From the IMG/VR virus record IMGVR_UViG_2675903654_000023: DNA of 11,283 nt; one strand, given 5' to 3'. Below the pieces are notes generated by a model. That model made no database searches. It was not told the DNA's origin and saw only the letters and a list, made by a program, of their open reading frames with translations. Positions 1,143 through 11,283 of this stretch are shown here, piece by piece. The stretch is from a virus (Duplodnaviria; Heunggongvirae; Uroviricota; Caudoviricetes). How positions within the stretch are numbered: position 1 is the first letter of the stretch; every line of letters starts with the position of its first letter. The translations under genes were made by a program, and so were the position numbers.

Positions 1143-1290
1143 CATTCATAGTGCAGGGATTAAAATCATTCCCACTCAATTATTTACGGATACCATAACC
1201 AATTGAGTGGTAACATTTTTCCAAAGCTCAATTTTTCCCGTACCGTTTTATATACCGTCACCGGAAATCAGTACCATGAAAAATACCATG

Positions 1291-2399: not shown

Positions 2400-2697
2400 G
2401 TTTAGACCTCGTTATTTTAAAAATCTGCACAACGTTACCGCGCGTTTTAATAACCGCAGCAAGCATGACAGCGTTGATAATGACCTCAGATAAATCCACA
2501 GCCATTGGCGTGCGTAACCAGATTGCATAAACGACACGAACAGGAATACTGGCCGCAGCAACAATCAGGAAATAAGCAATCCACCCACCCCATCTTCGGT
2601 GTTGAGATCCGTTACGCTGGAAAGTGACAACGCGAATTGCTATGCCAGTACAAATAACTGCATTGGTGATAATTAAAAAAAGGTCATGCGTTACCAT
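2389..2697 (-). CDS. Holin-like small membrane protein (three predicted transmembrane segments, charged C-terminus)
   Basis: Three hydrophobic segments and a basic C-terminal tail ([19 protein letters not shown]). Sits immediately upstream of the endolysin and overlaps it. A GGAG-type RBS precedes the ATG at 2697. Confidence 0.55.
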
Positions 2698-3097
2698 CGT
2701 CTTTTCTCCCCGGAATTAACTCGCGTGGATTATCGGAACGGTGATAGAGCCATATACCAATACGAACAGCGACAATTGCCGACACGAACGCACCTGCAGA
2801 AAATACAATCCCTTTCTCGAATGAGTCCTGCGTGATGGTTGGAATCAGGCTAGCTATGCCGATAAGAATTGATGCTGCCGGTTTGTAGAAAAGAAGGCCG
2901 CAGAGAAAGCTGAGCATCGACAGAAGAACACGACGACGGATTGGGTATTCTACTGCAGAGGTAACAAAAATTACCGCACCAGCCAAAGATCCCAAAGCGA
3001 CCTCTGGAGGAACTCCTGCTATCACCGCAGCAAGAGAACTAACGCTAAGCCACTGATTTAATGATTCACTTGTTAGACCAGCAGACATTGCAACCAC
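2684..3097 (-). CDS. Lysis-associated polytopic membrane protein (holin or antiholin candidate)
   Basis: Four to five hydrophobic segments and a charged C-terminus; it is the first gene of the lysis cassette. The longest ORF begins at a GTG (3097-3095); an ATG three codons downstream (3088-3086) has a GGTGG Shine-Dalgarno 5 nt upstream and is the more likely start. Confidence 0.5.
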   Translation of the reverse strand: MVAMSAGLTSESLNQWLSVSSLAAVIAGVPPEVALGSLAGAVIFVTSAVEYPIRRRVLLSMLSFLCGLLFYKPAASILIGIASLIPTITQDSFEKGIVFSAGAFVSAIVAVRIGIWLYHRSDNPRELIPGRKDDGNA

Positions 3098-3191
3098 CGT
3101 TTACTGTTCATGACACCCCCTTAGTTGAGTGGGTATATCATACACAATAAACCGTAAACGGATAATCAACCTAAGATTAGCCCGAACAAAG

Positions 3192-3206
3192 TTACCTTAT
3201 AGGTAA
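3192..3206. promoter_or_regulatory. Palindromic operator-like site TTACC-N5-GGTAA (copy 1 of 4)
   Basis: Seen directly: gTTACCttataGGTAAa. It lies in the AT-rich intergenic island between the lysis cassette (minus strand) and a small plus-strand ORF. Confidence 0.45.
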
Positions 3207-3271
3207 AACTCTTACTGTTGAATGTTAATTTATATAGGTTTCCCTTTCGGATGTTAAAGAGTGGGAATCGC

Positions 3272-3442
3272 ATGAACACAATAACTAAATTTGGGCACTG
3301 GTTTATCATGGCGATGGGGATTGCATGCCTGTTAATGCTAATAACAGGCATTTCCTCTGCGAAAGTTTTTGTTGGTGTTGATATCGCAATGATAGCGATA
3401 TGGCTATGGGATGAATATTCCCACTGGAAGCACAAGCAATAG
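3272..3442 (+). CDS. Hypothetical small membrane protein (56 aa, two hydrophobic segments)
   Basis: Internal ATG of track ORF 3218-3442. A purine-rich stretch (AGAGTGGGAA) precedes the ATG. Lies in an AT-rich island convergent with the tailspike gene. Coding status is uncertain. Confidence 0.3.
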   Translation: MNTITKFGHWFIMAMGIACLLMLITGISSAKVFVGVDIAMIAIWLWDEYSHWKHKQ

Positions 3443-5518
3443 CTATTTATTGGAAAATAAATTCTCAAGCTTGCTAATTCTGGCTTCCAGTTTCTGCCGC
3501 TCTCTCCGCTGATATGCAGCTTCCAGCCAGAGACATTGATCAGCACGAATGCCCCATCGGTTTCCCGCTGGCGTAACCAGCAGCCTGCCCTCAGGCTTTA
3601 CAATCTCTGTCCAGGCTTCTTTCTTGACGATTTGCTGCATTGATACATCCAAAATAGAAGAATACTCGGCAGGATGCTCAACCACTTCCTCAGGGATAAT
3701 CTCGTACTGGTCTTGCCATTCATCGTAACAGAGCAGGCCAAATCGAGTCCCGTCGATTCCTTTCGACTCGAATGCCTCTTTAACCTGTTGTGCAATAACG
3801 CCAAAATGCCAACGTGCGCCAGCCTGCCCCTTTTCTTTAATAGAATTCAGCCACTGAAAAGCGATTATTGAAACTTCCCCCCACGCGTCAAGTATTGCAT
3901 TTTCATCAACAGCCATGAATTTCGATAGCTCTGATACTTTAATCGGCTGTGATTTTTCACGGCCGTCTGAAGTATTAATTGAACCAGTGCCTGCAAAAAC
4001 GGTGCTCCAGCGGTTTACGATATCACCCAAAGGTGTTGAGTTATCATTACCAGGGGTTAACGCGCGCTGGGAGACTGCGGCAGGCTTAATCTGGAGACGC
4101 ACCTCATTTCCGGATACAAATTTTAAACTAGTGTCGCCTGTTGTACCTAAATAAGTCCCGTTTACATCAGTTGTCACAAAGCCGTGAAAGTTACCGGTCG
4201 CCCCGCCGCGCCAGCTTATGGCGTAAGTTAATTGCGACGGATCTATGCCAAATCCTGCAGCGCCATTCTGGAACATCTTGCCAAGGTTCGGAGCATAATA
4301 GCCATAGCCATTCATCTGTCGGACATTTATAGCTACGTTCGCTCCCCGAGCCGCTTTTAAATGCTCAATATAAACGCCGCTTTGTTCACCTACAATGCCA
4401 GTACTTCCAAGCAAAACATCATTGATATATACCCCTCTGCGGTCGAGTATCGTCCCGGTTCCATTATGTGATGGGGATGAATAAAATCCCTGCATGTTTT
4501 CCAGAGTTCCGCTTCCGGCGTAATTAATACGATCTTGAAAGCTGAAAGCGTGATTTTGAGCGTGGCCGCCAGTTATGATTAGCGTTGAATCAAAAGCTCC
4601 ATATCCGCCATAGTCGGAGGCCTGATTAATAACTGTCTTATCTGCGAAGGCGTGGCAGTTCGTTGGCGCGTTATCGATACGACGAGCCACGTTTATGGCG
4701 TCTCTTAGCGAATCAGGCGACGGCCATGTAGCGCCAGCCACGCCGACTGGCTGGTCGCCAACTATAAGATTTCCGTACGTGGTTGAGATGCGTAAACCGC
4801 CTGTCATTGTGTCGCCGCGCTTGTCGACTGCGTTACCTACCCTTTTGACTCCATCAGGCTGAGCCAGGGTTATCAGTACGTCAGAGGCGCTACCGCTTTG
4901 TGGAACAACAGTAATTGGATTTCCTGATGAATCGAAAGCCAATAGCTGATTTGCTCGCATCGACACGCCAGGAACTGGGCCTACATAACTCTCCGGAACC
5001 CGTAGCGTGCGGTTGAAGTTAACGTTGTTAAGCGTATCAACATAATTTTTAGTGGCTGCATCTTGGGGGGTTGAAGGATCGCGTAAGTTTCTGATGTAAT
5101 TGTTAAGCGCATCATAATAATTTGCCACGAATGACGGCTTACGCAGCGCCAAGCTAAACCAACTTCGAACCTGCTGGATCAGCATCGTTAGCTTATCAAA
5201 AGCATCCTCATGCACTTCTGCAAAGAACTTACCCTGATTACGCAAATCAGTTTCCTGCGTAACCGGGAGCTCTCGTGATATAGAAATCTGATAACCGCTA
5301 ACCAATGCCTTCGACAGAATTATATTGCCACCATTGTATCCTCCAGCCCCAGTAACTATGTAATCAGTGTCAAGAATCAGCTCTGTGATGTTCTCGTTCA
5401 GGTCAACAACCTGCACTACTAAATCAGATTTCTGGAAAATCCTGAAGGTATAAGGGAATGTCGTTGTAACACCGTTACCGGTGTATTCGTTGTGGTCAAC
5501 TTCGGTTGAGACCGTCAT
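3443..5518 (-). CDS. Tailspike / tail fibre protein with a C-terminal intramolecular chaperone (peptidase S74-like) domain
   Basis: 691 aa. The N-terminal roughly 120 aa resemble the particle-binding N-domain of podovirus tail fibres/tailspikes (YTGNGVTTTFPYTF...). The central region is Gly/Asn/Thr-rich, consistent with a beta-helix receptor-binding or depolymerase domain. The C-terminal roughly 175 aa start with an S-D-x-R-x-K motif (SDGREK, about residue 517, nt about 3968-3970), the hallmark of self-cleaving chaperone domains. RBS GGAG lies 7 nt upstream of the ATG at 5518. Confidence 0.85.
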   Translation of the reverse strand: MTVSTEVDHNEYTGNGVTTTFPYTFRIFQKSDLVVQVVDLNENITELILDTDYIVTGAGGYNGGNIILSKALVSGYQISISRELPVTQETDLRNQGKFFAEVHEDAFDKLTMLIQQVRSWFSLALRKPSFVANYYDALNNYIRNLRDPSTPQDAATKNYVDTLNNVNFNRTLRVPESYVGPVPGVSMRANQLLAFDSSGNPITVVPQSGSASDVLITLAQPDGVKRVGNAVDKRGDTMTGGLRISTTYGNLIVGDQPVGVAGATWPSPDSLRDAINVARRIDNAPTNCHAFADKTVINQASDYGGYGAFDSTLIITGGHAQNHAFSFQDRINYAGSGTLENMQGFYSSPSHNGTGTILDRRGVYINDVLLGSTGIVGEQSGVYIEHLKAARGANVAINVRQMNGYGYYAPNLGKMFQNGAAGFGIDPSQLTYAISWRGGATGNFHGFVTTDVNGTYLGTTGDTSLKFVSGNEVRLQIKPAAVSQRALTPGNDNSTPLGDIVNRWSTVFAGTGSINTSDGREKSQPIKVSELSKFMAVDENAILDAWGEVSIIAFQWLNSIKEKGQAGARWHFGVIAQQVKEAFESKGIDGTRFGLLCYDEWQDQYEIIPEEVVEHPAEYSSILDVSMQQIVKKEAWTEIVKPEGRLLVTPAGNRWGIRADQCLWLEAAYQRRERQKLEARISKLENLFSNK

Positions 5519-5674
5519 GTTAAATCTCCGGATAGTCGCAGCACCCGTTGCGCCGCATATCCGGTTATTCTATTACCTGAAAAACCACATATGGATATAT
5601 AACCCATAAATACGAACAGATATTACCTTTCAGGTGATTCGCAAAACGTGCTGGATAGCAAACAAATTATTTGA

Positions 5675-5713: not shown

Positions 5714-5971
5714 ATGCAGCAGTATCACTATCCACTGGAAGACGGATTTACCGAAAGGATTCACACGCCGGGAGGCGTCAGGTCACTGGTGGAGGGATCG
5801 CACTTGATGAAATTACTCCGGGATCTCGATAAGGATGGATTTAATGTCGATGGCCCACTTGCCGAACTGACTGCACTGATTAACTACGTCACCAGCTCAC
5901 AGATGTCTATGCGGGATCTGCAAACACATCTCGACTATTGTGCCGAACAATTACGAAAACAAACCAGATAA
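5714..5971 (+). CDS. Small stand-alone antirepressor C-domain protein (85 aa), probably SOS-controlled
   Basis: RBS GGAG (5702-5705) precedes the ATG at 5714. The protein aligns without gaps over about 72 residues with the shared C-terminal domain of the two larger antirepressor-like proteins, at roughly 45-50% identity by eye (IHTPGGV...LMKLL...DG..V.G..AELT...RDLQTH..Y). The LexA box lies immediately upstream. Confidence 0.6.
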   Translation: MQQYHYPLEDGFTERIHTPGGVRSLVEGSHLMKLLRDLDKDGFNVDGPLAELTALINYVTSSQMSMRDLQTHLDYCAEQLRKQTR

Positions 5972-5974
5972 GGT

Positions 5975-6003
5975 TTGCAATTACCAAGTGGAGTGCTTAT
6001 ATT
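5975..6003 (+). promoter_or_regulatory. Sigma70-type promoter of the plus-arm sRNA-like element
   Basis: Seen directly: -35 TTGCAA (5975-5980), 17-nt spacer, -10 TATATT (5998-6003). It begins 4 nt after the stop codon of the 85-aa gene. Confidence 0.5.
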
Positions 6004-6017
6004 TACCTTTGCGGTAA
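6003..6017. promoter_or_regulatory. Palindromic operator-like site TTACC-N5-GGTAA (copy 2 of 4), overlapping the -10/+1 of the sRNA promoter
   Basis: Seen directly: ATTTACCtttgcGGTAAAT, an extended 7-5-7 palindrome. Confidence 0.5.
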
Positions 6018-6130
6018 ATTTACATCGCACTCCTCTTGTGCCATAGTAATCGGGCACTGGCAAAATCCAGTGCCGGGATTGGCGTCCCGGATTACTACAG
6101 AGGCACATATGCCGCATAAGCGGTTTTTTT
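6010..6130 (+). ncRNA. Candidate structured small RNA / terminated leader (plus arm)
   Basis: Bounded by the promoter above and an intrinsic terminator (GCCGC-ATAA-GCGG followed by seven T, about 6111-6130). The core (about 6004-6097) is more than 95% identical to the inverted copy at 8993-9086. It contains stable hairpins (GGCACTGG-CAAAAT-CCAGTGCC and CCGGGA-TTGGCG-TCCCGG). No conserved ORF spans it. Confidence 0.5.
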
Positions 6131-6225
6131 ATGTGTAAAACGCACCTATTCTATGGTGGGCTGTGTGGGGGCACCGAAAGGTGCGCCGGGTCCTTTGTAG
6201 CCGGTTACGCCAACTCTGCACAGTT

Positions 6226-6256
6226 CACCACCAACCGATTGGCGTCGGTAGTGGTG
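6226..6256 (+). promoter_or_regulatory. Leader hairpin upstream of the Bro-N antirepressor RBS, loop UUGGCG
   Basis: Seen directly: CACCACC-A-ACCGA-TTGGCG-TCGGT-A-GTGGTG. The loop is identical to the hairpin-2 loop of the plus-arm sRNA element. The hairpin ends about 27 nt before the ATG at 6284. Confidence 0.45.
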
Positions 6257-6283
6257 ATTAACCTAACTACAAAGGTGATCACT

Positions 6284-6970
6284 ATGACTGCTAACGTAAC
6301 CCCATCTGTTTTTCATTTTGAATCAGAAGCAACCATTCGAGCCATTGTTATTGATGGAAATCCTTGGTTTGTTGCCAAAGACGTTATTAAAGCTCTTCAA
6401 CTGACAAACCCCACTATGTCAATAAAATCTCTTGATGATGATGAAAGGGCTAAATTTAACTTAGGCCGTCAAGGCGAAACCAATATTATCAACGAGTCAG
6501 GCCTCTACACACTGATCCTCCGCTGCCGCGACGCAGTGACACCAGGCACTATCCCCTACCGCTTTCGTAAATGGGTTACAGGTGAGGTTCTTCCTCAGAT
6601 CCGCCGCACCGGAAGTTACATTAAAAACTCGCTCCCGCAGGAAGAACGCATAAAGATGGTTGCCGACCAGGTAGCCAACGCCACGGCGTCAGCAGTGATG
6701 AAGGCGATGAAGATAGAGAACAAAACCTACAGCGCCCCGCTGAAGCCAGGCTACCGCAGCCTGATTCACTCGCCGTCTGGTGTTCTCGGCCTGACGGAGA
6801 ACTCACTGCTGATGAATCTGCTGAACCAGTTACAGGAAGACGGGCACGACGTATCGGGCGCGGCGGCGGAGCTGACCACCATGTTCTGCTACATCGTCGG
6901 TGTGAGCAAATGCCTGCGTGATATCCAGACGCACGCGGAGTACATCAACGACAAGGCTGGGTTCTTCTGA
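6284..6970 (+). CDS. Antirepressor-like protein: N-terminal Bro-N domain plus shared C-terminal domain
   Basis: Internal ATG of track ORF 6131-6970, with RBS AGGTGA 5 nt upstream. The N-terminus has Bro-N motifs (IRAIVIDGNPWFVAKDV...GLYTLILRCR...FRKWVTGEVLPQIRRTG). The C-terminal roughly 80 aa are identical to those of the convergent gene at 8144-8800. Confidence 0.8.
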   Translation: MTANVTPSVFHFESEATIRAIVIDGNPWFVAKDVIKALQLTNPTMSIKSLDDDERAKFNLGRQGETNIINESGLYTLILRCRDAVTPGTIPYRFRKWVTGEVLPQIRRTGSYIKNSLPQEERIKMVADQVANATASAVMKAMKIENKTYSAPLKPGYRSLIHSPSGVLGLTENSLLMNLLNQLQEDGHDVSGAAAELTTMFCYIVGVSKCLRDIQTHAEYINDKAGFF

Positions 6971-6993
6971 CGGGCGGCGGCACAGGGATGTGC
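6730..6993. repeat. Inner inverted repeat, left arm (partner 8121-8385)
   Basis: Seen directly by reverse-complement comparison. About 230 bp (6763-6993) are near-identical to the reverse complement of 8121-8352, with one mismatch noticed. Identity drops to roughly 90% over the preceding 30 bp and is then lost. It covers the shared C-domain coding sequence plus a 3' hairpin (GGCACAGGGATGTGCC). Confidence 0.85.
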
Positions 6994-7042
6994 CTTTAAA
7001 TAATTCTGTACAGATTGCAGACTGTGGGTGAATAGCGTACTA

Positions 7043-7057
7043 TTACCTCAAGGGTAA
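7043..7057. promoter_or_regulatory. Palindromic operator-like site TTACC-N5-GGTAA (copy 3 of 4), upstream of the central module
   Basis: Seen directly: aTTACCtcaagGGTAAa. It is followed by a second inverted repeat (ACGGATT-N14-AATCCGT, 7059-7086) that overlaps a candidate promoter. Confidence 0.45.
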
Positions 7058-7063
7058 ACGGAT

Positions 7064-7093
7064 TGGTTTCATTTTTATTAATCCGTGTAATGA
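7064..7093 (+). promoter_or_regulatory. Candidate promoter of the central two-gene module
   Basis: Possible -35 TTGGTT (7064-7069), 18-nt spacer, -10 TAATGA (7088-7093). This is a weak call from reading the sequence only. Confidence 0.3.
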
Positions 7094-7117
7094 ACTTATG
7101 AGATATGAGGTAATGTC

Positions 7118-7297
7118 ATGCGAAACGAAAAATTGCAGATGCGTAGAGCGCAAGCTGCCGCAAGACGTTCTTTCAATGGAAGCGTAGAGTACGTAAAAGT
7201 TACTATGACAAAAGATCACGCAAGTCGCGTATCCCGCGCTTTCTTTGATTCTCGTAACAATAAGGAAAATTATGAGTTCGTCTGCGTCGCAGAATGA
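7118..7297 (+). CDS. Small basic protein (59 aa), candidate antitoxin or regulator of the central module
   Basis: Absent from the ORF track, presumably below its length cut-off; hand-translated as MRNEKLQMRRAQAAARRSFNGSVEYVKVTMTKDHASRVSRAFFDSRNNKENYEFVCVAE. Strong RBS GAGG 7 nt upstream of the ATG at 7118. Its 3' end overlaps the start of the next gene by 26 nt in a different frame. Confidence 0.45.
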   Translation: MRNEKLQMRRAQAAARRSFNGSVEYVKVTMTKDHASRVSRAFFDSRNNKENYEFVCVAE

Positions 7298-7817
7298 TAA
7301 AAATCAAGTTGTCAGATATAAGGGTCGAGTGTTGCATACGCAAAATTTCTCGGCCCTTTGTGCATCTGATCTTGAGCTGAAGAAAGTATCTGATGCCTTT
7401 ACCCAGTATTGGAAAACGGGATACCATCCATCTCTTGGTAAAGATGCTGCATTTGCTCGTCCGACAGAAATGCTTAAACTAAATGTCAGGCATACTCATG
7501 TCGATAACCAAGACTATATTCCAGAAGATAGTGATAAAAAACACACTGGTAAAAAATCATCTTGGGATGCATGGAAAAATATAGCGTCTGTACAAGTAAA
7601 ATGCATACCAACAAGTGATTGCTTTTTAGTTTATTCGGTAAATCACAATCGTGATGCGCTGGTTATGTTTTTTGTTGACGCAGATGCTCACAACATAACT
7701 GAGCAAGAAGAGTTTAAAGAGGAAGCAATCACTATCAGTTATCAATTCTTTGAGAAAACAAAAACAGAACCAATGCCTTTAGAAGAAGATCTTTTTTCTG
7801 ATAAATGGAAGGAATAG
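7272..7817 (+). CDS. Hypothetical protein (181 aa), candidate toxin; weak YafO-like resemblance
   Basis: Internal ATG of track ORF 7245-7817, with RBS AAGGA 5 nt upstream. AT-rich coding sequence. Segments (GKDAAF...LNVRHTHV...CFLVYSV...ALVMFFVDADAH) resemble motifs I recall from YafO-family toxins; this is from memory and unverified. An intrinsic terminator follows directly. Confidence 0.55.
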   Translation: MSSSASQNDKNQVVRYKGRVLHTQNFSALCASDLELKKVSDAFTQYWKTGYHPSLGKDAAFARPTEMLKLNVRHTHVDNQDYIPEDSDKKHTGKKSSWDAWKNIASVQVKCIPTSDCFLVYSVNHNRDALVMFFVDADAHNITEQEEFKEEAITISYQFFEKTKTEPMPLEEDLFSDKWKE

Positions 7818-7837
7818 CCCGCAGCGCGGGCTTTTTT
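7817..7837 (+). terminator. Intrinsic terminator of the central module
   Basis: Seen directly: stem GCCCGC (7817-7822), loop AGC, stem GCGGGC (7826-7831), then six T (7832-7837). It overlaps the stop codon. Confidence 0.7.
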
Positions 7838-7909
7838 GTGGACGAAACAAAAGTCAGTGCTACACTCATTGACGCCACATTGAGGTGGCTTATAGATGGA
7901 AATTTCACA

Positions 7910-8071
7910 ATGAAAAAAGCATTTGCTGCACTGTTCGTTTTGTTGTCTCTGGTAGCTTCAACTCAGGCCTTTGCCGGTCGTTGTCAGCACGACAGCGATA
8001 CTGCCGCTGACGGCTCCCGCTGCGGTGGGCGTTCTGCGGATTCCCGCCCGGGCGGCGGTGGCATTCGTTAA
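7910..8071 (+). CDS. Hypothetical small secreted peptide (53 aa precursor, about 31 aa mature, two Cys), possibly leaderless
   Basis: Internal ATG of track ORF 7805-8071. Signal peptide MKKAFAALFVLLSLVASTQAFA followed by a Gly/Arg/Asp-rich tail. A candidate promoter (TTGACG 7869-7874, TATAGA 7891-7896) would place the transcript start only a few nt before the ATG. No convincing Shine-Dalgarno. Coding status is uncertain. Confidence 0.3.
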   Translation: MKKAFAALFVLLSLVASTQAFAGRCQHDSDTAADGSRCGGRSADSRPGGGGIR

Positions 8072-8094
8072 AAACAAGGCCGCGAAAGCGGCCT
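8070..8094 (-). terminator. Candidate intrinsic terminator downstream of the AntA-type antirepressor gene
   Basis: Plus strand AGGCCGC-GAAA-GCGGCCT (8077-8094). On the minus strand this hairpin is followed by TGTTTTT. A 12-bp perfect palindrome GTGACATGTCAC (8095-8106) lies adjacent. Confidence 0.4.
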
Positions 8095-8120
8095 GTGACA
8101 TGTCACGCTAGTTTCGTTTT

Positions 8121-8385
8121 GCACGTCCCTGTGCCGCCGCCCGTCAGAAGAACCCAGCCTTGTCGTTGATGTACTCCGCGTGCGTCTGGATATCACGCAG
8201 GCATTTGCTCACACCGACGATGTAGCAGAACATGGTGGTCAGCTCCGCCGCCGCGCCCGATACGTCGTGCCCGTCTTCCTGTAACTGGTTCAGCAGATTC
8301 ATCAGCAGTGAGTTCTCCGTCAGGCCGAGAACACCAGACGGCGAGTGAATCAAACTGCGGTAGCCGGGCTTCAGTGGGGCGCTGT
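8121..8385. repeat. Inner inverted repeat, right arm (partner 6730-6993)
   Basis: Reverse complement is near-identical to 6763-6993; see the left-arm entry. Confidence 0.85.
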
Positions 8386-8800
8386 ATTCTTTTTTGTCTT
8401 CCAGCTTGATCGCCTCCATAATGGCGGGCATGAAGCCTGACAAGACCTTCTCCACTTTTGTTTCTTGTTGTCTTAAACGTTTCTCGCATTCAATGAAGTA
8501 GCGTCGTACCTGACGACCTTTTTCGTTACGCTCGACCATCGCCAGCTCTTTGGCTGTATCAAGGGTGAGGTGGTACTCTTTGCGGTTGTGGCCGCCTCTA
8601 CCAGATGTTTGCTTTCCCAAATTGGAAAGCAAAATATAGTCTTGATTTTCAATGAATTCGTATTCTGATATGCGATTTGTAATCCATGCTGCAAACACCT
8701 TTTTAACACCTAAAAAAGCGTGCAGATCGCGGGCATTACAAAGTAGGGCTGTTTCGTTAGATATAGTGCCGTTGAATACGGGGATGAGTTGAGCGTTCAT
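8144..8800 (-). CDS. Antirepressor-like protein: N-terminal AntA-type domain plus shared C-terminal domain
   Basis: The N-terminus matches the AntA/AntB antirepressor N-domain pattern (LIPVFNGT...[10 protein letters not shown]...W...EYEF...[27 protein letters not shown]). The C-terminal roughly 80 aa are identical to those of the 6284-6970 product. RBS GGAG 8 nt upstream of the ATG at 8800. Confidence 0.85.
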
Positions 8801-8828
8801 GATGGCGTCTCCACTTAGCGAATTACAT

Positions 8829-8859
8829 CACCACCGCTGAGACCAATCAGATGGTGGTG
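8829..8859 (-). promoter_or_regulatory. Leader hairpin upstream of the AntA-type antirepressor RBS, loop UUGGUC
   Basis: Minus-strand reading: CACCACC-AT-CTGA-TTGGTC-TCAG-C-GGTGGTG. The loop is identical to the hairpin-2 loop of the minus-arm sRNA element, and the stem differs from the plus-arm leader by compensatory changes. Confidence 0.45.
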
Positions 8860-8958
8860 AACTGAACGGAGTTGGTCTTACCGGCCTAAGTGGTACCGGC
8901 GTCCTTTCGGACCCCCATTCAGCCCACCATAATTCTGGCATGACTGTGCTATACGCAT

Positions 8959-9080
8959 AAAAAAAACCACGTCTGGCGTGGTATGCGCCACTTAGTAATC
9001 CGGGAGACCAATCCCGGCACTGGATTTTGCCAGTGCATGATTACTATGGCACAAGAGGAGTGCGATGTAAATTTACCGCA
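8959..9080 (-). ncRNA. Candidate structured small RNA / terminated leader (minus arm)
   Basis: Inverted copy of the 6010-6130 element. Its own intrinsic terminator on the minus strand is ACCACG-CCAGA-CGTGGT followed by eight T (plus coordinates about 8959-8982), different in sequence from the plus-arm terminator. Hairpin-2 reads CCGGGA-TTGGTC-TCCCGG. Confidence 0.5.
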
Positions 9081-9087
9081 AAGGTAA
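9073..9087. promoter_or_regulatory. Palindromic operator-like site TTACC-N5-GGTAA (copy 4 of 4), overlapping the -10/+1 of the minus-arm sRNA promoter
   Basis: Seen directly: TTTACCgcaaaGGTAA. It is part of the outer inverted repeat. Confidence 0.5.
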
Positions 9088-9116
9088 TGATAAGCGCTAA
9101 GAAATATTAAAATCAA
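9087..9116 (-). promoter_or_regulatory. Sigma70-type promoter of the minus-arm sRNA-like element
   Basis: Minus-strand reading: -35 TTGATT (plus 9111-9116), 18-nt spacer, -10 TATCAT (plus 9087-9092). Sequence upstream of the -10 is not homologous to the plus-arm promoter, yet a promoter is retained. Confidence 0.45.
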
Positions 9117-9234
9117 CCATATTTGGTTAATGCGTATAAAAGAGCCAGCAGCGAGAAATTGTGCCGCGACGTAAAATAACGAGCATCTGCTGGCTTACAA
9201 CCAGCGATGTTTCAAATTTGTCACTATTATCAAC

Positions 9235-9582
9235 GTGCCATTCCACGGCGCAGAGCTTTATGTTGTCAATCACAACGGCGAACCGTATACCCCAATGAAA
9301 CCTATCGTTGAGGGAATGGGGCTAGACTGGAAATCTCAACATAAGAAGATTTCTCAACGCTTCTCGAAGGGTATGGTGGAAATCACCATACCTTCTGCCG
9401 GTGGGGTGCAAGCCATGATTTGTATGGCTTTACGAAAATTGGCAGCTTGGTTGAACAGCATCAGCCCTAACAAAGTCCGCCCTGAAATCCGCGAAAGTAT
9501 TGAAACATCAACCGTATCGATATCGACACGGTTGATTATGACGGTAACTTATTTCCGTGTGTCCTATTTCTCCCGCCACTAA
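9235..9582 (+). pseudogene. Probable remnant of an antirepressor N-terminal (P22_AR_N-like) domain gene
   Basis: The track ORF starts at a GTG with no RBS. Residues about 8-85 (LYVVNHNGEPYTPMKPIVEGMGLDWKSQHKKISQRF...LRKLAAWLNSISPNKVRPEIRE) resemble antirepressor N-terminal domains as I recall them. The last roughly 30 residues look like out-of-frame read-through. It ends back-to-back with the convergent 98-aa gene. Confidence 0.35.
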
Positions 9583-9879
9583 CTAATTATATTTGTCTTT
9601 AAAAATTTCATGGAATGATTGAGAGTAAGACTTGCCATACTTCAAATAACATTCTTCATCCAACTTTCTTAATGAACTTCGAACCTGTTCGTGGCATACA
9701 GCAAAAAAAACAAGTCCGCCGCCTATTAATACCCCTATTGATATTGGGTTCGCAACATCCCATAAAAAATCGGCTAACAGAGCAAATACCCCACCGCCGC
9801 CAATAAATGCCCCTATAGCTCGGTTCGTTTTAGCTTGCTCATAGCGTCTCTCTAACTCACTAAACTCTTTAATATCCAT
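9583..9879 (-). CDS. Small two-pass inner-membrane protein (98 aa) with glycine-zipper segments
   Basis: RBS GAGGTG 7 nt upstream of the ATG at 9879. Two hydrophobic segments rich in GxxxG (AIGAFIGGGGVFALLADFLW and ISIGVLIGGGLVFFAV). AT-rich coding sequence, immediately downstream of the large virion-protein gene. Confidence 0.6.
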   Translation of the reverse strand: MDIKEFSELERRYEQAKTNRAIGAFIGGGGVFALLADFLWDVANPISIGVLIGGGLVFFAVCHEQVRSSLRKLDEECYLKYGKSYSQSFHEIFKDKYN

Positions 9880-9897
9880 ATAAGCACCTCTATAAAA

Positions 9898-11283
9898 TTA
9901 CTTCATCACCGGATCCACCTGGTTTATTAGTGGCGCAATCCAGAACAGGTTATTGCCGGGTATCAGGGTTCGGACATTATGCACAATACGATCACCGGCA
10001 TCACCATTCAACACTCCTGCGGTCACATCAATGATGCTATCCGCAAGACCAAATGACGGTCCGAATAGAGATCCTACGAATCCACGACTGGCATACCTAG
10101 ACTGTGTGCCAGTGCCAAATAAAGCCCCCAGCCCAACAGCACCACCAGTAGCCTTTTCAGCCATGTTGTTATATTCCATCAATGGCCCAAGAATACCGGA
10201 TCTATCTATACCCTCAAGCACCAGCTTCTCTGGTGACCAGTCAACATTTTTCCCTTTCGATGCTTCTTTTAGCGCATAGACCAGTGAGCCAAGAGCAATC
10301 TGAAATGCAGTGCCATAATAAAATTGCGCAGTTCCTTCCTGTAACCCACCAAGTAGCGCACGGTTGTATGAAGCCGTTGTGAATGATTTAAACTGAAATA
10401 TCGTTCGCCCCATTGGAGTACTCGCCCATAAAGGTGTGTCACCAATACCGGGGGTGATGATAGTGTTATTAACGTCTTTCAGAACCGCTGACTGGAATAC
10501 TCCGGCAACGTACTGATCGTCCCATTTATCAAAGTTACCAATGTGCCATCCATCAATTACCTCACCATGTTTCTCGAACTCACTGCGAATACGCGCAGCC
10601 ATATTGTCGTTGATACCGAGTTTTGCCATGCGACGTGCAGAAAACGCACCAGACAAAATACCGTCTGACGTGAGCATTCCGTTCATGGATTTGTTTATGT
10701 CATTAAATCGATCCATGAGTGTCAGCTTGCCGAAGGCATCAGTAATTCGCTCCATTCCTGCTTCGACTGCTGTTGTCCTGGAAGAACTGTCAACAAGATC
10801 ACCAATTGCACGAGAACGTGAATGTAGTACAGCTTCCAATCCAATCCCCATCTTCAACATCTCTTCTTTGCTGGCCTTAAATGCCGGTGATTGGGATATC
10901 TGAGAAGCATAGCCTTTCATGGTGTTACGGAAACCATTAACCATAACCCCTCTGGCCAGATCTGGAATAGCTGATACTGTCATTCCACCGAGTTTGGTCG
11001 TGAAGTTCACATCCCGCAGAAAAGCGCCAGCACGAACAAAAAACGAAGACGGATCATCAGGCATACCATATGTACCAACAAGACGATCGCGTAATGCTGT
11101 TATGTCTCTGAGATCATTTGCTCTTGATTTTGAAAGTCTGGACTGTTCTTTCCGTAATTCCTTTTCGTACTTTCGCATTAATGAATCGAGTTTACCCTGA
11201 GGAACAACTTCACCATTGCTCTCATAACGTGCTTTCAGATTTGCCACACTTTCGTCATATTTCGCCTTTATTTTTTCAGGCAC
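9898..11283 (-). CDS. Large phage protein, 5'-truncated by the window edge; probably virion-associated, function unassigned
   Basis: Open reading frame running to the window edge, so the N-terminus lies outside. The sequence read has a charged N-terminal part and a Gly-rich hydrophobic stretch near the C-terminus (GGAVGLGALFGTGT). Its position directly upstream of the accessory module and tailspike on the same strand suggests a late-operon gene. Confidence 0.6.
   Translation of the reverse strand: MPEKIKAKYDESVANLKARYESNGEVVPQGKLDSLMRKYEKELRKEQSRLSKSRANDLRDITALRDRLVGTYGMPDDPSSFFVRAGAFLRDVNFTTKLGGMTVSAIPDLARGVMVNGFRNTMKGYASQISQSPAFKASKEEMLKMGIGLEAVLHSRSRAIGDLVDSSSRTTAVEAGMERITDAFGKLTLMDRFNDINKSMNGMLTSDGILSGAFSARRMAKLGINDNMAARIRSEFEKHGEVIDGWHIGNFDKWDDQYVAGVFQSAVLKDVNNTIITPGIGDTPLWASTPMGRTIFQFKSFTTASYNRALLGGLQEGTAQFYYGTAFQIALGSLVYALKEASKGKNVDWSPEKLVLEGIDRSGILGPLMEYNNMAEKATGGAVGLGALFGTGTQSRYASRGFVGSLFGPSFGLADSIIDVTAGVLNGDAGDRIVHNVRTLIPGNNLFWIAPLINQVDPVMK

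Follow-up and report, generated by a model that had tools for sequence, protein, structure and literature searches.

Nested inverted repeats in an epsilon15/phiV10-like Escherichia coli prophage mark two convergent antirepressor cassettes of the C4/IsrK type

The 11,283-nucleotide (nt) stretch of viral DNA held in IMG/VR as record IMGVR_UViG_2675903654_000023 (referred to below as the window, meaning the whole stretch) derives from an epsilon15/phiV10-like (Uetakevirus-type) prophage of Escherichia coli, and near its middle two pairs of long inverted repeats are nested around two convergent antirepressor genes and a small cargo module. Such an arrangement raises the question of why the repeats exist at all, and whether they allow the DNA between them to flip. 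A preliminary description had proposed a flip-able segment, in which recombination at the inner pair would invert the cargo and recombination at the outer pair the whole antirepressor block. The answer reached here is that the repeats exist because the window has two convergent paralogous cassettes of the type known from the immI region of phage P1 and the IsrK locus of prophage Gifsy-1, so that the odd nested repeat can be explained as the footprint of two riboregulated antirepressor cassettes. Very probably the two units are convergent C4/IsrK-type cassettes whose conserved inverted blocks have also acted as recombination substrates over evolutionary time. This is a recombination-prone architecture and not a demonstrated switch; functional paralogy comes first and the part played as a recombination substrate comes second.

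The outer repeat pair (I2) consists of a left arm at 5992..6097 (+) and a right arm at 8993..9098 (-), is 106 nt long and is 93% complementary, and the inner pair (I1) consists of arms at 6715..6993 (+) and 8121..8399 (-) that are 279 nt long and 96% complementary. The coordinates given earlier for both pairs are therefore correct to within a few bases, the inner pair being about 15 nt longer than had been thought, and the nesting around two convergent antirepressor genes and a cargo module is as described. The repeat finder also returned a third, weaker pair (I3) that lies between the other two (6184-6258 with 8827-8901, 75 nt, 73%), and alignment of the two cassettes indicates that the outer homology actually spans about 270 nt when this pair is counted in. 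The mismatches are unevenly distributed: nine of the ten in the inner pair fall within its first 47 nt, leaving a perfect block of 227 nt (6762-6988), and the outer pair has seven mismatches with a longest perfect block of 49 nt. When the window was shuffled 20 times, exact inverted matches reached at most 12-20 nt, as opposed to 227 nt in the real DNA. The minimal processing segment for homologous recombination is a few tens of base pairs (bp), which the inverted perfect blocks of 227 and 49 nt comfortably exceed, and the claim that the repeats are long enough for homologous recombination holds.

Two readings of this geometry can be set aside at once. The first is a programmed invertible segment of the Gin/Cin/Hin or shufflon type, driven by a recombinase; what speaks for it is the geometry, in that inverted repeats surround a gene module near a tail-fibre gene, much as they bound the Mu G and P1 C segments on which Gin and Cin act. 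Unlike those segments, the window has no invertase, a domain search having found no serine or tyrosine recombinase domain in its sizeable open reading frames (ORFs), and the absence of a site-specific recombinase stated in the preliminary description thus stands. Moreover, the repeats are 106-279 nt of functional coding and regulatory sequence and not short crossover sites of about 26-34 bp, and inversion would regenerate the same ORFs instead of alternative gene products. The second reading is that the repeats are an assembly artefact, or the ends of a composite transposon carrying a toxin module. The window is indeed an 11.3-kb contig of a draft source, identified among the collected loci as L025 (IMGVR_UViG_2693429700_000024), and its cargo is toxin-antitoxin-like, but no transposase is present, the repeats belong to functional genes and RNAs, and the matching architecture is present in independent complete (closed) genomes and in the isolated phage TL-2011b, so that an assembly artefact can be discarded. 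Both readings were given almost no credence, and programmed invertase switch, composite transposon and assembly artefact were all rejected.

What the repeats are becomes apparent when their content is considered. The outer repeat is promoter plus leader RNA, the weak middle repeat is the scaffold of a C4-type RNA, and the inner repeat is formed by the 3′ ends of the antirepressor genes. Each outer arm contains the promoter and the 5′ part of the leader of its own cassette, the left inner arm comprises the last ~85 codons of the left antirepressor gene and 23 nt past its stop codon, and the right inner arm is the 3′ end of the right antirepressor gene. Antirepressor 1 (6284..6970, +) is a protein of 228 amino acids (aa) with a Bro-N domain (PF02498, E = 4e-20) that belongs to phrog_130/245 ('anti-repressor Ant') and matches phrog_450 at residues 145-226; antirepressor 2 (8144..8800, -; 218 aa) carries an AntA domain (PF08346, E = 4e-26) and is also assigned to a PHROG 'anti-repressor Ant' family. 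The C-terminal ~80 aa of the two proteins, corresponding to the phrog_450 domain, are identical. A C-terminal block of ~85 codons is thus joined to unrelated N-terminal domains, Bro-N on the left and AntA on the right.

Upstream of each gene the two cassettes follow one plan. Rfam models (gathering scores of 45 bits for C4, RF01695, 50 bits for isrK, RF01394, and 46.7 bits for c4-a1b1, RF03163) were scanned against the window, and C4 and isrK each match once per strand, directly 5′ of an antirepressor gene. A sigma-70-like promoter, TTTACA-17-(TG)CATAGT, is located at 6019..6047 (+) and again on the minus strand at 9071-9043; the motif is conserved in both outer arms as TTTACA-17-TGnCATAGT and stops 6 nt short of the 5′ end of the IsrK match. 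The left IsrK-like leader RNA (6054..6130, +; RF01394, 76.8 bits) contains two short elements, b1 (TTGGCGT, 6079-6085, +) and a1 (CTACAGAGG, 6095-6103, +), followed by an intrinsic terminator (6111-6130, +). The right leader (8960..9036, -; RF01394, 67.7 bits) has the same elements in the same order, namely b1 (TTGGTCT, 9005-9011, -), a1 (CTAAGTGG, 8988-8995, -) and a terminator (8982-8960, -). Both leaders cover the isrK model from end to end (positions 1-77 of 77), terminator included, and agree with an IsrK RNA in having a pair of 5′ hairpins ahead of a rho-independent terminator.

Each leader is followed by a C4-type antisense RNA. The left one (6149..6235, +; RF01695, 76.2 bits; minimum free energy (MFE) -42.2 kcal/mol, z = -3.96) has the element a′ (CCTTTGTAG, 6192-6200, +) in a hairpin loop and the element b′ (ACGCCAA, 6207-6213, +) in a single-stranded stretch, and the right one (8850..8934, -; RF01695, 61.2 bits; MFE -41.2 kcal/mol, z = -5.5) has a′ as CCACTTAG (8886-8893, -) and b′ as AGACCAA (8872-8878, -). 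Both fold to the family structure, with a′ in the loop, b′ unpaired and stems that show compensatory changes. Complementary targets lie immediately downstream. For the left RNA these are b2 (TTGGCGT, 6239-6245, +) and a2 (CTACAAAGG, 6267-6275, +), the latter including the Shine-Dalgarno sequence AAGG of the antirepressor gene, with its ATG at 6284; for the right RNA they are b2 (TTGGTCT, 8840-8846, -) and a2 (CTAAGTGG, 8811-8818, -), followed by an AG that completes the Shine-Dalgarno GGAG. In both cassettes a2 thus lies over the Shine-Dalgarno sequence, 8-9 nt before the ATG, and the C4 pairing amounts to 9 + 7 bp for the left cassette (copy 1) and 8 + 7 bp for the right (copy 2). The distance from the end of the left C4 RNA (6235) to the antirepressor ATG (6284) is only 48 nt.

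The two cassettes are alike in their scaffold and unlike in their recognition elements. When they are aligned, the mismatches within conserved sequence cluster in b1, a1, a′, b′, b2 and a2, and the few mismatches of the leader repeat are specificity bases. Duplex energies were computed on short segments, as prediction on whole molecules unfolds the entire RNA, and on that basis cognate duplexes range from -9.2 to -12.7 kcal/mol and non-cognate ones from -3.4 to -6.9 kcal/mol. Since no recognition element is the same in both cassettes, mutual orthogonality (so-called heteroimmunity) is predicted for the two C4 RNAs.

This pattern extends to relatives of the window. Related loci were collected from IMG/VR (165, by means of gp19-like, orf98 and P22_AR_N markers, of which orf98 yielded only 5 loci and was of no use for the survey), from complete E. 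coli genomes, and from the phages TL-2011b and phiV10. From 170 related loci, 122 modules with 67 unique sequences were extracted by alignment column, and these hold four a-alleles and three b-alleles in seven combinations. Three allele classes for which the automatic extraction was one column off or gave segments of unequal length were re-read by eye, and the complementary cores were confirmed. In all modules but one, complementarity holds between a′ and both a1 and a2, and between b′ and both b1 and b2. The lone exception is a chimeric leader in locus L077 (IMGVR_UViG_3300045988_096329), where three C4/antirepressor cassettes occupy 6566-11250 and one leader has a b1 (GGCGT) that does not match its own b′ (AGACC); this is the product expected of a crossover within the leader repeat downstream of b1. 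Among 16 unique convergent pairs none has the same (a′, b′) combination in both cassettes, which would be expected with P of about 0.016 if alleles assorted at random.

Cassettes of this kind have well-studied counterparts. In P1, as described in the accounts cited, C4 RNA keeps the antirepressor from being expressed, and the heteroimmunity of P1 and P7 comes down to small base differences (PMC8198154; PMC6906374; Citron & Schuster 1990 as cited there). In Gifsy-1, IsrK acts in trans on a read-through transcript that holds STnc1160, the C4 equivalent, and turns on translation of the antirepressor (PMC4825925); lysogens express both IsrK and STnc1160 at high levels (PMC7067206). The mechanisms of IsrK/STnc1160/AnrP and of P1 c4/ant are, according to these same accounts, established by experiment (PMC4825925; PMC8198154). 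With the P1/P7 immI region (c4 - icd - ant1/ant2) the cassettes share a C4-family RNA on the same transcript as the antirepressor gene that it controls (or, here, is predicted to control), and two short elements (a′, b′) with targets both upstream (a1, b1) and downstream (a2, b2, and the ribosome-binding site (RBS)). They differ from it in having no icd-like ORF, in that a2 covers the antirepressor Shine-Dalgarno sequence itself, in that the antirepressors are single Bro-N or AntA fusions instead of Ant1/Ant2, and in belonging to an epsilon15-like podovirus with two convergent cassettes of different specificity per genome. The Salmonella Gifsy-1 locus (isrK - STnc1160/orf45 - anrP) offers the same succession of a leader, a processed stable RNA and an antirepressor gene, processing being predicted in the present case, but the window has neither a conserved orf45-like coupled ORF nor an antQ-like target nearby, and its cassette is duplicated and inverted. 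By RNA family, complementarity and gene content, each cassette belongs to the C4/IsrK-antirepressor group, as a compact version that lacks the icd/orf45 feature.

By analogy with these systems a scheme for each cassette can be outlined, in which C4 repression and the target of the antirepressors, like the pathway of recombination, are inferred. The order of elements is promoter, IsrK-like leader (b1, a1, terminator), C4 (a′, b′), b2 and a2 over the RBS, and antirepressor gene. Transcription from a constitutive-looking promoter would yield a leader RNA that carries decoy copies of the targets, b1 and a1, and ends at the intrinsic terminator. Read-through would generate the C4-type RNA, whose loop a′ and single-stranded b′ could pair with a2 and b2 just downstream. 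In a lysogen, C4 would thereby keep the antirepressor untranslated, and direct occlusion of the RBS is expected because a2 overlaps the antirepressor Shine-Dalgarno sequence and there is no conserved icd/orf45-like ORF; the leader RNA could titrate C4. Homologous recombination at the conserved blocks would let cassettes change slots, the block invert, and the cargo be swapped or flipped, with genes left unbroken.

An ATG is found directly after each leader terminator (6131-6283, +; 8959-8880, -), without a Shine-Dalgarno sequence. In copy 1 it is in frame with the antirepressor gene and opens a 279-aa ORF that runs through C4, and that of copy 2 begins a 26-codon ORF whose stop lies within C4; as its reading differs between the copies, it is probably not an orf45 equivalent.

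Does the DNA between the repeats in fact invert? A comparison of orientation among relatives gave a positive result for the outer pair. In the prophage of strain MCJCHV-1 (L171), positions 2601-5633 are the reverse complement of positions 6017-2985 of the AH20E044 locus (L005), with 96.9% identity over 3,038 nt, and the flanks on either side are collinear at 97.9% and 98.6%. The plus- and minus-strand alignments overlap exactly in the leader/C4 arms, and both cassettes together with the full cargo, a block of ~3 kb, are inverted. Whole-block isomers with breakpoints in the repeats are also seen when locus L072 is compared with L086, L088 and L122: L072 1-2484 is the reverse complement of L122 3179-696 at 99.76%, and relative to L086 both cassettes are swapped. 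Individual cassettes move as well. The AntA/C4-2 cassette, which is in the right slot of the window, occupies the left slot of about 14 loci, and the Bro-N/C4-1 cassette of the window is found in the right slot of strain UTME-9, where 5995-6993 of the window corresponds to the reverse complement of L003 6934-5935 at 97.3%.

For the inner pair the evidence is partial. The cargo includes a gene for a 53-aa protein ('p53', 7910..8071, +) that served as an orientation marker, and loci L035 and L077 share the same two cassettes with the p53 segment inverted. With the backbone as reference, the p53 gene is inverted in 3 of the 21 loci that bear the repeats and in none of the 39 loci with a single cassette (Fisher P = 0.039), a contrast that is only suggestive, since the genomes are related. 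A synthetic inner-flipped junction ('Bro-N ant -> repeat <- p53') found one-piece matches of 96-100% in four complete genomes, which are due to the Bro-N/C4-1 cassette being in the right slot there, and reading these matches in the UTME strains as a simple inner flip was rejected. A search of 5,426 E. coli genomes with a synthetic pure inner-flip isomer of the MCJCHV-1 prophage returned no such isomer. The inversion predicted for the inner pair is thus borne out only in part, by the p53 segment and not by a pure isomer.

If inversion were to occur, its effects on the genes could be slight. A crossover within the 227-nt block would regenerate both proteins unchanged, and one within the 49-nt leader block upstream of b1 would leave the sets of recognition elements linked; were the crossover to fall downstream of b1, the leader would be mismatched, as in L077. 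The terminator for the right-hand antirepressor gene (8094-8077, -) lies inside the cargo beside p53 and would serve whichever antirepressor gene adjoins p53. Judged from these gene arrangements, inversion is predicted to be phenotypically near-neutral.

A stronger reading is an active flip-flop, in which RecA or a phage RecE/RecT-like system inverts the segment at an appreciable rate in a lysogen population, so that isomers are mixed and perhaps a phenotype is switched, for example by determining which antirepressor gene obtains the strong terminator or whether read-through reaches the toxin cargo. The perfect homology is ample for recombination, both inversions keep the ORFs intact owing to the identical C-terminal protein and the linked specificity sites, both orientations occur in nature, and the only strong terminator of the right-hand gene sits in the invertible cargo, where it would serve the other gene after a flip. 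The distribution of orientations argues otherwise. Thirty complete E. coli genomes match in two pieces just as MCJCHV-1 does (29 at 9403 bits and one at 9397), all in a single orientation so far as assemblies, which report the majority orientation only, can show; the orientation is therefore stable on a clonal timescale. The pairs of isomers differ by 0.2-3% elsewhere, so that the inversions are old relative to clonal spread, and the pure inner-flip isomer is missing from the genomes searched. Neither a dedicated recombinase nor short crossover sites accompany the repeats. An ongoing flip-flop is accordingly considered improbable, and of the term 'flip-able' what survives is that isomers exist among relatives, not that switching continues. 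The related proposal that inversion would rely on homologous recombination agrees with the lack of a recombinase in the window, but host RecA need not be the sole agent, because phiV10-type phages encode, outside the region corresponding to the window, a RecE/RecT-like protein (phiV10 annotation).

An alternative is that no intramolecular inversion takes place, and that the blocks only provide homology 'handles' by which related phages, on co-infection or as residents of one host, exchange segments through double crossovers that can install either orientation. Mosaicism is rampant among these phages, with 16 distinct dual architectures and cassettes in either slot, and most pairs of apparent isomers are further set apart by one cassette or some of the cargo. 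The nearest relative of the window, L014, is otherwise 99-100% identical and has the same cassettes with other cargo; its differences from the window extend only partway along the left arm, so that recombination tracts must have ended within the arms, and site 6958 differs from the window in both arms together. The chimeric leader of L077, with its mismatch between b1 and b′, also speaks for exchange. In many cases exchange accounts for the data at least as well as intramolecular flipping does. Taken as the whole explanation it is nevertheless rather unlikely, although a good deal less so than ongoing flipping: L171 and L005 differ by a clean whole-block inversion that keeps cassettes and cargo, for which one intramolecular crossover in the leader arms is simplest, and the p53 marker is inverted only where inverted repeats are present. 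Exchange is moreover compatible with intramolecular inversion, and the two mechanisms are not exclusive. Inversions between long repeats elsewhere, such as rrn operons, insertion sequence (IS) copies and paired prophages, likewise involve hundreds of bp, no dedicated recombinase and the occurrence of both isomers in relatives, and inversion by long inverted repeats is as a general idea ordinary; what sets the present case apart is that the repeats are internal to two functional paralogous cassettes in one 3-kb phage module.

The reading preferred here, that of two convergent riboregulated cassettes whose conserved blocks also recombine over evolutionary time, has several points that weigh against it. 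The c4-a1b1 model overlaps both leaders at 45.1 and 37.6 bits, below its gathering score, although the upstream b1 and a1 are present in both leaders, are complementary and co-vary, and the overlapping isrK model is above threshold. No icd/orf45-like coupled ORF conserved in both cassettes was found on reading the sequence, and the window does not include the repressor that the antirepressors would target. Both statistics, that for pair specificity and that for the orientation of the cargo, come from related, non-independent genomes. There is no general signal of concerted evolution between the arms, the mean identity being 96.7% within and 96.3% between genomes, and the unusual similarity of the window's own arm pair is unlike arms in general. 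Finally, intramolecular inversion and inter-phage exchange are indistinguishable from sequence data alone.

A broader proposal can be put forward tentatively, with the balance of judgement leaning somewhat against it: Uetakevirus-type prophages may carry a two-slot, 'two-key' anti-immunity device in which the cassettes are selected for orthogonality, with at least four a-alleles and at least three b-alleles, and in which the conserved blocks would be recombination handles that reassort specificity, N-terminal domain, cargo and orientation quickly, by inversion and by exchange between phages. Literature searches found no published twin or inverted antirepressor cassettes in epsilon15/phiV10-like phages, and no published orthogonal convergent cassette pair in one phage, a-by-b allele system, or inversion or slot-swap isomers. 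The cassettes extend the P1 c4 and Salmonella IsrK paradigm to a common E. coli prophage family, and the covarying alleles amount to a natural collection of short RNA-RNA recognition pairs, apparently orthogonal, that could be reused as parts and that predict which prophages cross-induce or cross-repress one another. The inversion isomers provide an example of inverted functional paralogues that let a phage module rearrange without loss of function, and nested inverted repeats of this kind matter for the assembly and annotation of these regions.

The antirepressors have further relatives next to the cassettes. Just upstream of the left cassette lies the gene of a gp19-like 85-aa protein (5714..5971, +; phrog_450, E = 7e-48), which was used as the left backbone marker; it is the counterpart of epsilon15 gp19 and phiV10 gp24, and amounts to a stand-alone antirepressor C-terminal domain that shares 41% identity over 78 aa (E = 2e-16) with the C-terminus of the Bro-N antirepressor. 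It may compete with the antirepressors or act as their partner. In phage ZX5, a Bro-N antirepressor at the matching position favours the lytic cycle when overexpressed (PMC9782041); the ZX5 paper covers this antirepressor and makes no mention of the RNAs.

On the right, a truncated P22_AR_N antirepressor fragment (9223..9582, +; PF10547, E = 7e-32), annotated as a pseudogene, is the constant neighbour of the right cassette in dual-cassette relatives. Positions 9223-9493 are the reverse complement of L081 9726-9456 at 99.6%, that is, of the 5′ end of a full-length right-slot antirepressor gene, and the inverted fragment points to an older rearrangement. The immI region of P22 (arc - ant, with the sar antisense RNA) is similarly a secondary immunity region that encodes an antirepressor, and the right slot of TL-2011b and of L021, L078 and L081 holds a P22_AR_N-type Ant that ends in the same C-terminal block and, in TL-2011b, is preceded by an Arc-like repressor gene. 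In the window, by contrast, the right slot is under C4/IsrK and not Arc, and P22_AR_N is present only as the truncated, inverted fragment.

The cargo between the two antirepressor genes comprises three genes. A 59-aa ORF (7118..7297, +; phrog_6685; TL-2011b gp45) overlaps the start of a gene for a 181-aa YafO-family toxin-like protein (7272..7817, +; PF13957, 26.1 bits with a cut-off of 25; TL-2011b gp44), which is followed by a terminator (7816-7832, +). The two resemble a toxin-antitoxin pair, and a function for the 59-aa ORF can only be inferred, from its antitoxin-like position. The third gene encodes p53 (phrog_14503 'membrane associated protein'; WP_000708858.1), whose N-terminus is signal-peptide-like and which is taken to be secreted or located in the membrane. 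In relatives an unrelated 210-aa gene takes the place of the toxin-antitoxin-like pair, and the 53-aa signal-peptide protein is kept.

The whole cassette block constitutes a variable region between the tail-fibre gene (3443-5518, -) and a structural gene (9898-11283, -). The window is 99% identical to Escherichia phage TL-2011b over 68% of its length and runs collinear with phiV10 and epsilon15 through the lysis, tail-fibre and structural regions, and relatives are found in about a fifth of complete E. coli genomes, one ST131 strain included. In TL-2011b, phiV10 and others an O-acetyltransferase (serotype-conversion) gene is located between the holin-region gene and the tail fibre; it is not in the window (window 3100-3450 compared with L001 3588-5122), and the C-terminal part of the tail fibre differs from that of TL-2011b. 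These two differences explain much of the 32% of the window that TL-2011b leaves uncovered.

Several smaller features were noted towards the ends of the window. The first 516 nt (1-516, +) match an identical TL-2011b gene that is called 'DNA methyltransferase' in the RefSeq record; Pfam gives only glycine-zipper and TraT-like outer-membrane lipoprotein domains for the protein, in agreement with the original GenBank label of the TL-2011b gene, 'putative outer membrane lipoprotein', and the RefSeq name is likely a mis-annotation. A 17-nt att core, ATTGAGTGGGAATGATT, is present as an exact match at 1164-1180 (-) and sits in an imperfect palindrome (I4, 1162-1220). The same sequence is given as attP/attB of ZX5, phiV10 and epsilon15 (PMC9782041), and similarity to most related phages begins exactly at 1164, positions 1-1163 being common only to TL-2011b. 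At the other end, just past the point (9493) at which the homology of the P22_AR_N fragment ends, a 30-nt near-perfect palindrome, ATCAACCGTATCGATATCGACACGGTTGAT (I8), lies at 9507-9536 and may mark the breakpoint.

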